The translations under genes and the position numbers were made by a program. A stretch of 63,977 nucleotides of DNA, the filler included, from Hausera hauseri (lineage: Eukaryota), in assembly GCA_046269625.1 (NCBI GenBank). It is 12 parts of 12 records of this genome, joined end to end, with 100 filler letters (N's around TTAATTAATTAA, not from the genome) between each part and the next. Parts side by side here need not be neighbours in the genome. Positions count along the whole stretch, not along the records: positions 12,728 to 17,331 come from JBJURY010509462.1; 11 more parts are not named here. One strand, 5' to 3'. Below, piece by piece: positions 15,282 through 17,331 of the stretch (the stretch's first letter is position 1; each line of letters starts with the position of its first letter). Under the pieces are notes generated by a model. That model saw only the letters and a program-made list of their open reading frames with translations, searched no databases and had not been told where the DNA came from.

Positions 15282-15510
15282 ATTATAAGTATAGAAATTA
15301 AAACCAATAAGCGAGAACAAGTAATCGAAGTAACAGCAGGAACGTTCACTAAGTTTACAGATCTCCGAAGGAAAGTGTTAGATGAATTGGATCTCGAAAC
15401 TAATATTATAGCAAAAACTGATGTCTACGGTAGACCATCCGCTGATAATTATTACATTATAGATTACGGACTCCTAATTGGAAAGATTCATCAGATTTTT
15501 ATGGAATTTA
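15282..15510 (+). pseudogene. Ubiquitin-like (beta-grasp) domain within the polyprotein
   Basis: IISIEIKTNKREQVIEVTAGTFTKFTDLRRKVLDELDL...YGRPSADNYYIIDYGL. The last part aligns without gaps to ubiquitin GKQLEDGRTLSDYNI (G, D and DY conserved). No C-terminal GG. Confidence 0.5.
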
Positions 15511-15849
15511 GTACTAAGAAAAAGGAAGGAAGAACGCGAAAATGCGCTTTTAACCCAATAAGTGACGATGAAGAAAACTCCAAAGAAGAAAAGCCAGAAA
15601 GACAAAGAAAGAAAAGACCTCTGCAAGGAACAACGAGAAGAATTATAGGATATATTATACAATAACTTCCAACGATTCACTATTAGCGATGACGAAAATA
15701 AAAAAACAAAAAATCCTGTTAAGGGAACATTATGTCAAAACAAAACAGATGTACCAAAGGTAACAGTGACAAATCATGAACTTCTAGAACAACAAATCAA
15801 GAGAGCTAATCTAAATCAACTCAAAAAGGTACCAACAATTACAACGATC

Positions 15850-16240
15850 CCGTTGCAGTCCATAATAGAAAGCGCTAGAAATTTCTCATTGCAAGTCGCA
15901 AAATTGCTGCAGAAATACAAACTAAAAGGAGGCTTGAATAAAGCATTTACACGGTTAATAAAGGAATGTGATCAAAATCGAGTACTGATGGCATTAGAAT
16001 ATATAGTGGTTAGCTTCAGGTACCAAACAGAAATCGATGCCAATTGCATCATATAGTAAGAGATTTAGCCCACCACATGGATAAACTAACGAAAGATTGG
16101 GTAACTAAACAAGGTGGTTGAGATGAAATCCTCAAGAAATTTAACCCCACTACATTAATGTACCACAAAGATGCCAATGTCTCAGATAAGGTAGTACAAA
16201 TTAGTCATTTGCTACTATACTTAATAGCAGTGAGCAGTCT
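15850..16240 (+). pseudogene. Bcl-2-like domain followed by a hydrophobic segment
   Basis: BH1-like FTRLIKECDQNRVLMALEY. After a frameshift near 16035, BH2-like LAHHMDKLTKDWVTKQGG*DEILKKF (TGA at 16119-16121 replaces the TGG Trp of GGW). Then hydrophobic VVQISHLLLYLIAVSS. Confidence 0.7.
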
Positions 16241-16255
16241 AAAACCACGAAATCG

Positions 16256-17331
16256 TTGGAAGCCTATTATTGTTCCAAACCGGAAATAACAGATAGACTT
16301 GCATTCGTGGATATAGATAAATGTCGAAACGCTAATCTAACATTAGTAAAGAACGAAGGTCCTTATAACTATAACCTATATCAAAGAATTAGTTATCAAC
16401 AAGTTCAGGTAAAGGAATGTTAAGTTAATAAAGTTATATTCGCCTATAACTGCGGTCATAATTCGTGGAATTCGGTAATTATTCCACCAGGATTACCTAA
16501 ACCTGTGACAATAAGAGCCGAATATTGTAGAAAAGCAACTGATTCAATTCATGTAGGCCTTCAACAGTCAGTACAGGCAGGCATGGGAAAACGAGTGTAT
16601 TCACGCATAGCCAGAGCTGGAAAAATATAGCCCGGATACGGTGGAGCTTGTAAAGGAGAAAGTATGATGATAAATGGGCAAAAAGAATCCGCTATAGTAC
16701 AAATAGAAGATTATACCGTCACCATAAAGGAATATAAAGTAAATTTCGATACAATCACAGGAAAAATGTTAACCGCACCATCCTGTACATATTCCGATGA
16801 AGTATGAACCTTACGAAAATTTGCAATAGTCCGGGAAAAACAGTCGTAATATGTCCACTAGCTTTCCTTAAACAAGTAAATATGTATGAAGTACAAGGTG
16901 ATTTGTATTATTATGACAAATACCAAGAACCTGTGCATAACCATAATATAAATTTACCTACCCCACGAACCCTAAAACAAACCACTTTTCTAAAAGTTCT
17001 GATGTTATCTAGTGACAAGGATGGAATCGTACTAGCACGAAAAGGAGAAGTACCCACTTGTCGATCAAATGCAGTTTACCCAACATCTTATGAAGATTTA
17101 TTCGTAACAAAGGTAACTCTAGCAAATACAGGAAAGTTGCCAACTGAAGATATAAGGTGGTACCTATATACGAATAACAAGATAGACTATATCTATCATT
17201 CAGCAAAAATAGATTTAGATTAATTGTGTAACATGATGGTACTGAGAGATTGTAAAATCATTCAAAAATTGAACCAACACGACTTGTTACTAACTAGAGA
17301 GTTCCCAGAACATATTGTTTTAATTACGGGA
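16256..17331 (+). pseudogene. Chuvirus (Jingchuvirales)-type fusion glycoprotein / env, cut by the contig end
   Basis: Manual translation LEAYYCSKPEITDRLAFVDIDKC...LYQRISYQQVQVKEC*VNKVIFAYNCGHNSWNSV...IRAEYCRK...RAGKI*PGYGGACKG...TCRSNAVYPTSYEDLFV...YTNNKIDYIYH...LRDCK. This follows the chuvirus G pattern YDC..LLDVGEC..VKQC..YYCGMHSH..CRR..LAG..DGSCSG..LCG..TEHPKLFI..YVNSKFVY..KC. Confidence 0.85.

Follow-up and report, generated by a model that had tools for sequence, protein, structure and literature searches.

A decayed high-copy repeat encoding a viral-type envelope glycoprotein behind likely ubiquitin-like and Bcl-2-like domains in one former reading frame

Within the window analysed here, 63,977 nucleotides of the Hausera hauseri assembly, lies an inactivated copy of a very abundant repeat. 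Its one original frame encoded a likely ubiquitin-like (UBL) domain and a likely Bcl-2-like domain, followed by a hydrophobic helix and an envelope glycoprotein (env) of viral type. We propose, with a probability of roughly 0.78, that this cassette formed the central portion of a giant polyprotein encoded by a flatworm gypsy LTR retroelement of the Burro type.

The window consists of 12 unlinked contigs of 4-7 kb each, joined by N44-TTAATTAATTAA-N44 linkers. Since these joins are artificial, proximity across linkers says nothing on linkage, and the pol-bearing contigs found elsewhere in the window cannot be linked to the cassette. Every part of the cassette lies on the plus strand of a single contig (12728-17331; 4,604 bases), which stops at an assembly gap at 17332. 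Three-frame translation of this contig confirmed the intronless, one-strand arrangement proposed in a first-pass annotation of this DNA.

Evidence that the cassette was once a single frame came from a relative. A word-index search with the first glycoprotein piece as query returned only P0006 (1,963 aa; 62% identical) among 186 candidates. Compared with the whole 4.6-kb contig, P0006 aligned in 8 pieces, in order, at 50-64% identity, and it is unbroken wherever the window copy is interrupted, at 7 frame breaks and 19 stops in all. Such an unbroken, collinear protein indicates that the cassette parts formerly made up one polyprotein, as the first-pass annotation had claimed. In this one available relative the Bcl-2-like part and the glycoprotein share an ORF, and P0006 runs continuously through the point where adding a base at 16241-16244 had been suggested to join the hydrophobic stretch to the glycoprotein. 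P0006 ends soon after the env anchor, by a stop or by the end of its contig. Further word-index searches found no relative below 1,078 aa among 7,797 candidates and none of 3,437-5,000 aa among 5,063, lengths of 2,000-3,437 aa falling outside the range covered. A full HMMER search of 1.84 billion representatives gave two matches, P0006 and P0007; the latter is a repetitive protein and was dropped as spurious. No relative was present in the metagenome contigs or viral contigs searched.

The upstream part of the same decayed polyprotein (12733-15269, plus strand), a low-complexity basic stretch followed by domains, is collinear with P0006 179-1024 at 36-63% identity by segment and gave no significant Pfam match. 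It includes a beta-rich conserved region at 13800-14500 (+; P0006 about 550-790), for which a by-eye likeness to a degenerate AlkB-like or MATH domain was set aside, being without Pfam support. Just 5′ of the UBL domain, a small helical domain at 15050-15269 (+; P0006 951-1024) was the best-scoring part of the structural model (pLDDT 50-62) and matched only generic helical repeats.

Within 15282-17331 the window copy has four frame breaks (at about 15625-15638, 16041, 16241-16244 and 16837-16846) and six stops in the aligned frames. Run X1 contains contigs that are identical to the window copy and extend over its breaks at 16041 and 16241-16244. This speaks for genuine decay, with the reservation that X1 might itself be the sample from which the window sequence came. 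Identity to P0006 is 61-77% in the named domains versus 36-42% in the linkers, as expected if the domains were once under selection.

The cassette is clearly, over its full length, part of a sizeable repeat family whose copies have diverged. Among the 15,501,002 contigs of run X1, 12,189 map to the 4.6-kb stretch: 496 are at least 99% alike, 1,872 are 95-99%, 5,926 are 90-95% and 3,895 are below 90%, so that 9,821 of the 12,189 are less than 95% alike. As low-copy control we used the contig on which a large open frame at 1896-3914 (+) encodes APC and SAMP repeats and probably corresponds to an exon of host APC. Summed depth over the 4.6-kb stretch was 1,108-17,951 in all 30 bins, versus 0-27 in 26 of 30 bins of the control, the other four being other repeats. 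The two differ by two to three orders of magnitude in depth, which is not a copy count. These data bear out the mobile, high-copy side of the retroelement proposed earlier. No gag, protease, RT or LTR was found on contig 12728-17331 and none in P0006, the domains being searched with Pfam.

The env assignment is firm at the level of sequence profiles. The window encodes the N-terminal 60% of a Monjiviricetes-type fusion glycoprotein at 16256-17325 (+), 61% identical to P0006 and interrupted by 4 stops and 1 frame break. Translated with X at stops, both of its pieces matched Pfam PF24664 (Monjiviricetes_fusion) above the cut-off (E 2.3e-15 and 3.6e-07), and the same model covered P0006 residues 1345-1952 with E 1.9e-63. 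Over the region covered by the window copy, 10 of the 11 cysteines of P0006 are kept and the eleventh is a stop, consistent with the fusion glycoprotein reported in the first-pass annotation, for which a chuvirus is one candidate donor among Monjiviricetes-type viruses. The window glycoprotein is cut off at 17332 by the assembly gap, and P0006 runs 242 residues further. Besides the profile match, a predicted N-terminal signal and a C-terminal membrane anchor agree with the family, the anchor being visible in P0006 only. The family presumably belongs to the class III fusion proteins.

The UBL domain (15270-15515, +) is the best-conserved segment of the cassette, with 77% identity to P0006. Atlas leads pointed to PF11976 and PF00240 at 0.84-0.86, under the 0.9 mark of that resource, and ubiquitin-clan sets made up 3 of the 4 named Atlas sets among the matches listed; three unnamed clusters ranked higher. 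The modelled order of elements was strand-strand-helix-strand-strand-strand, in a poor model (pLDDT 48) with which Foldseek returned nothing at E 0.001. No Pfam ubiquitin match was obtained with the window pieces or P0006 at E up to 1 or 10, and PDB sequence searches gave chance-level matches only. The ubiquitin-like identity put forward earlier is thus kept as a lead, on the strength of the Atlas leads and of the conservation, and is not borne out by Pfam. A charged, poorly conserved linker follows (15516-15744, +; 42% identity to P0006), holding a frame break and a stop; Asp and Glu account for 34% of P0006 1116-1185.

The helical domain at 15745-16148 (+), 64% identical to P0006, probably adopts a Bcl-2 fold, judging by a BH2-like motif, its helix pattern and its position. 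P0006 carries a full BH2-like motif, W-x4-GGW-D, at 1309-1317; in the window copy the motif is present near 16098-16142 with a stop at the second Trp position. Its core occurred in 9 of 20,000 shuffles, the pattern having been written after the sequence was seen. The canonical BH1 motif is NWGR, and the equivalent place reads DQNR in both the window copy and P0006, where by eye the Arg alone fits. Of the BH1 and BH2 motifs described in the first-pass annotation, BH2 is therefore retained, as a BH2-like motif that is full in P0006, whereas the canonical BH1 motif is absent. A C-terminal hydrophobic tail, a further Bcl-2 trait, is provided by the peak at P0006 1337-1355, which an env signal would also explain. 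The structural model contained helices only, their order and lengths being compatible with a Bcl-2 bundle that has a tail helix at its end; it was poor (pLDDT 40), and Foldseek with this model, too poor for a meaningful fold search, returned nothing at E 0.001.

The Bcl-2 label is nevertheless the weakest of the cassette's domain labels, and the domain might instead be a helical spacer unrelated to Bcl-2, the hydrophobic helix then being an env signal peptide only. This alternative is compatible with Burro membership and would agree with the absence of canonical BH1 and with the outcome of the profile searches: Pfam gave no Bcl-2 match in window pieces or P0006 at E up to 1 or 10, PDB sequence matches were at chance level, the best Atlas match was an unnamed cluster (0.76), and at E 0.001 the 1.84 billion representatives yielded no Bcl-2 protein. 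Little weight attaches to these negative results, since the search profiles were shallow, with 2-4 sequences each; the VIA-align matches listed, mostly covering the first 75 residues, included no Bcl-2 or ubiquitin row and exclude nothing. The full BH2-like motif of P0006 and the fit of the helices, albeit in a poor model, speak against a mere spacer, as does the BCL2-like motif reported at the same position in Burro (PMC6431247, section on Burro). We consider a spacer unlikely and retain the Bcl-2-like reading. Large DNA viruses carry Bcl-2 mimics, which the predicted domain resembles in its divergent Bcl-2-like character, its C-terminal hydrophobic tail and its place in a selfish element; the viral mimics are separate genes, whereas here the domain would lie inside a polyprotein. 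An anti-apoptotic function can be suggested tentatively.

The hydrophobic helix (16179-16240, +) is predicted to be an internal env signal peptide and possibly also the tail anchor of the Bcl-2-like domain. Its Kyte-Doolittle 19-residue mean is 1.32 in the window copy, where the frame break at 16241-16244 lies directly 3′ of it, and 1.78 at P0006 1337-1355. P0006 has three hydrophobic peaks: this one, just before env and the only one within its first 1,900 residues, and two at the env end (1911-1929 and 1943-1961). Position 5 of the Pfam env model aligns at P0006 1345, inside the helix, which therefore occupies the expected place of the family's signal peptide. The helix also follows the BH2-like motif of P0006 by ~20 residues. 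This anatomy is compatible with the earlier idea that one segment serves as both signal and anchor. Signal peptidase requires small residues at -3 and -1, and Thr1360 and Ala1362 occupy these places ahead of the first env motif in P0006; cleavage after the helix is probable on these grounds. The helix is only moderately hydrophobic and contains Gln and His, features that suit a signal better than a permanent anchor. Lasting use as an anchor is a tentative suggestion, and the helix could be removed after cleavage.

The helix stands at the place of a Bcl-2 tail anchor, so that the Bcl-2-like domain would sit at the ER membrane on its cytosolic side. Because a tail anchor and an internal signal share the same orientation, the helix could hold the domain there. 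Dual use of one helix as Bcl-2 anchor and Env signal peptide is plausible. In functional copies, synthesis of the polyprotein would proceed in the cytosol as far as the hydrophobic helix, which would act as an internal signal peptide and thread the glycoprotein into the ER lumen, leaving the cysteine-rich env lumenal and everything ahead of the helix cytosolic. Host signal peptidase would then cut a few residues past the helix, yielding a type I envelope protein with its own C-terminal anchor, while the upstream piece would stay tethered through the same helix. The Bcl-2-like domain, placed on the cytosolic face of the ER membrane, might then damp cell death during particle formation. Internal signal peptides occur in viral polyproteins, as in hepacivirus core-E1 and the flavivirus capsid anchor. 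There too, one helix ends a cytosolic protein and signals the next, lumenal glycoprotein; these are RNA viruses with unrelated proteins, and we use them as a working analogy only. Neither section 7 of PMC6431247 nor the titles and abstract openings listed by our literature searches describe a helix with this double role of Bcl-2 anchor and Env signal peptide; the supplements of PMC6431247 or Grohme et al. 2018 may treat the signal peptide or give sequences.

The cassette layout has a published counterpart. Section 7 of the review by Arkhipova and Yushenova (2019, PMC6431247), which goes back to Jurka 2007 and Grohme et al. 2018, describes Burro, or GYPSM1, as giant LTR retrotransposons of gypsy-like type that measure at least 25-30 kb and are present in thousands of copies. 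In planarian Burro, ORF1 contains a Ubi2/SUMO-like domain (PF11976), then BCL-2, then an in-frame env before the protease, which the authors regard as the first case of an env placed in frame between gag and pol; this env matches fusion glycoproteins of arthropod and fish mononegaviruses (PMC6431247). The accessory domain set differs between species and includes MATH, BIR, ankyrin, AIR1 and Smc, and decayed Burro-type fragments with stops and frameshifts occur in a third planarian (dugesiid) species (PMC6431247). The review proposes that Burro elements represent integrated proviruses that interfere with apoptosis and ubiquitination; its section on Burro discusses neither a signal peptide nor polyprotein cutting. 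Excerpts of two other papers report that BURRO1 is transcribed once piRNA silencing is lost (PMC8532177) and name Burro (PMC11410931).

The cassette fits this description in its order within one frame, the UBL and Bcl-2 labels here being only likely, in having an env that is also of a negative-strand RNA virus fusion type (PF24664, E 1.9e-63 in P0006), in PF11976 being among the Atlas leads of its UBL domain, and in its high copy number. In contrast to Burro as described in PMC6431247, Pfam found no Gag, Pol, MATH, BIR, ankyrin, AIR1 or Smc in the cassette fragment. For Gag and Pol, the Pfam search covered P0006, with 1,360 in-frame residues ahead of env, and a contig that ends inside env; for the accessory domains, it covered the contig and P0006 upstream of the UBL domain, where only part of the ORF is present. 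The comparison is one of descriptions; no Burro sequence appeared among the relatives returned by the cassette searches. We nonetheless think it likely that the window copy is of Burro type. The first-pass annotation had raised the novelty of the layout subject to comparison with Burro; the same order with an in-frame env is in print (PMC6431247, section 7), so the earlier layout and most of what was concluded from it are already covered.

The cassette could alternatively stem from an env-bearing LTR retroelement of another lineage, either Anakin-like BEL/Pao or gypsy with a separate env ORF, and represent a stand-alone accessory-plus-env protein, not the middle of a Gag-Pol. P0006, without pol and ending soon after the env anchor, would suit such a protein; its start, a long stretch that is basic and of low complexity, as is typical downstream of Gag, goes against it. 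Pao elements of mosquitoes have captured chuvirus-type glycoproteins (PMC7642597), and such glycoproteins lie alongside gypsy fragments in insects (PMC10084718), yet the excerpts of both papers mention no SUMO-like or BCL2-like domain, and the three-part order is that reported for Burro (PMC6431247). Anakin itself resembles the cassette as an LTR retroelement with a chuvirus-type glycoprotein as env, and differs in its Pao rather than gypsy backbone, in its insect host and in that the excerpt mentions no ubiquitin-like or Bcl-2-like partner (PMC7642597). Another lineage is a good deal less probable than Burro.

An endogenised piece of a free virus, amplified passively later and derived either from a chu-like RNA virus or from a large DNA virus that encoded a Bcl-2 mimic, would explain the viral type of the glycoprotein, and the excerpt of PMC10084718 lists a chuvirus from a flatworm host. 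This origin is very improbable given the many diverged copies over the whole 4.6 kb, the fusion of env behind 1,360 residues without match to viral families and the absence of a relative from the viral contigs searched. A domesticated host gene, or an intact gene broken by assembly errors, is hardly credible: the unbroken P0006 would allow it, whereas the frame breaks and stops spread over the contig, the X1 contigs that match the copy exactly through its breaks at 16041 and 16241-16244 (X1 possibly being the source sample itself) and the high copy number all oppose it.

Relative to this published oddity, the Burro-type reading of the window copy contributes a divergent family, along with a specific proposal of how the giant polyprotein would be cut and placed in membranes. 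The cassette layout is known from Burro (PMC6431247, section 7); the shared helix and the possibly non-planarian host were not found in print. Were the host not planarian, the range of these virus-like elements would be wider. A bolder combination, in which Burro-type enveloped retroelements reach other, possibly parasitic, flatworms beyond planarians and use one helix twice, as signal of a virus-derived fusion protein and, after the signal peptidase cut, as the tail anchor that keeps a captured Bcl-2 mimic on the ER, is on balance unlikely; if true, envelope production would also install an apoptosis brake. The window copy itself is a poor model, being fragmentary, interrupted and devoid of gag, pol and LTRs. 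Literature searches found nothing on LTR retrotransposon envelopes in monogenean genomes and, by direct search, nothing on Bcl-2 in flatworm gypsy polyproteins, the Burro review aside.

The host group is likely flatworm, on the evidence of one protein sequence. An intronless EF1A ORF of 464 aa at 24711-26105 (+) has a six-residue insertion relative to mammalian EF1A. The protein is closest to animal EF1A among solved structures and clearly non-vertebrate, and the insertion is presumably of the kind known from flatworms; no publication on such an insertion signature in flatworms was found.

Other contigs of the window carry further mobile elements. Two copies of an RT-RNase H-integrase pol region, at 5608-12627 (-) and 43972-48415 (+), are 77% alike over 3.5 kb; each has a long post-integrase extension, and RT was detected in the first only. 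Both contain a hydrophobic stretch, VQI..LIA, that resembles the one of the env signal at 16194; this pattern, chosen post hoc, has 3 matches in the window. They might represent the pol half of the cassette family. Broken pieces matching a protein-primed DNA polymerase B and an endonuclease VII at 40955-42336 (+) suggest a decayed Polinton-like element. A long degenerate microsatellite array with a 4-base period and a strong T skew extends over about 18600-23600. Finally, retroelement remains at 29274-32044 (-), 54790-55900 (+), 61169-61591 (-) and 53919-54323 (+) comprise a small RT-bearing element of gypsy-like type, two gag-like pieces, of which one shows a CCHC knuckle by eye, and an RT fragment.
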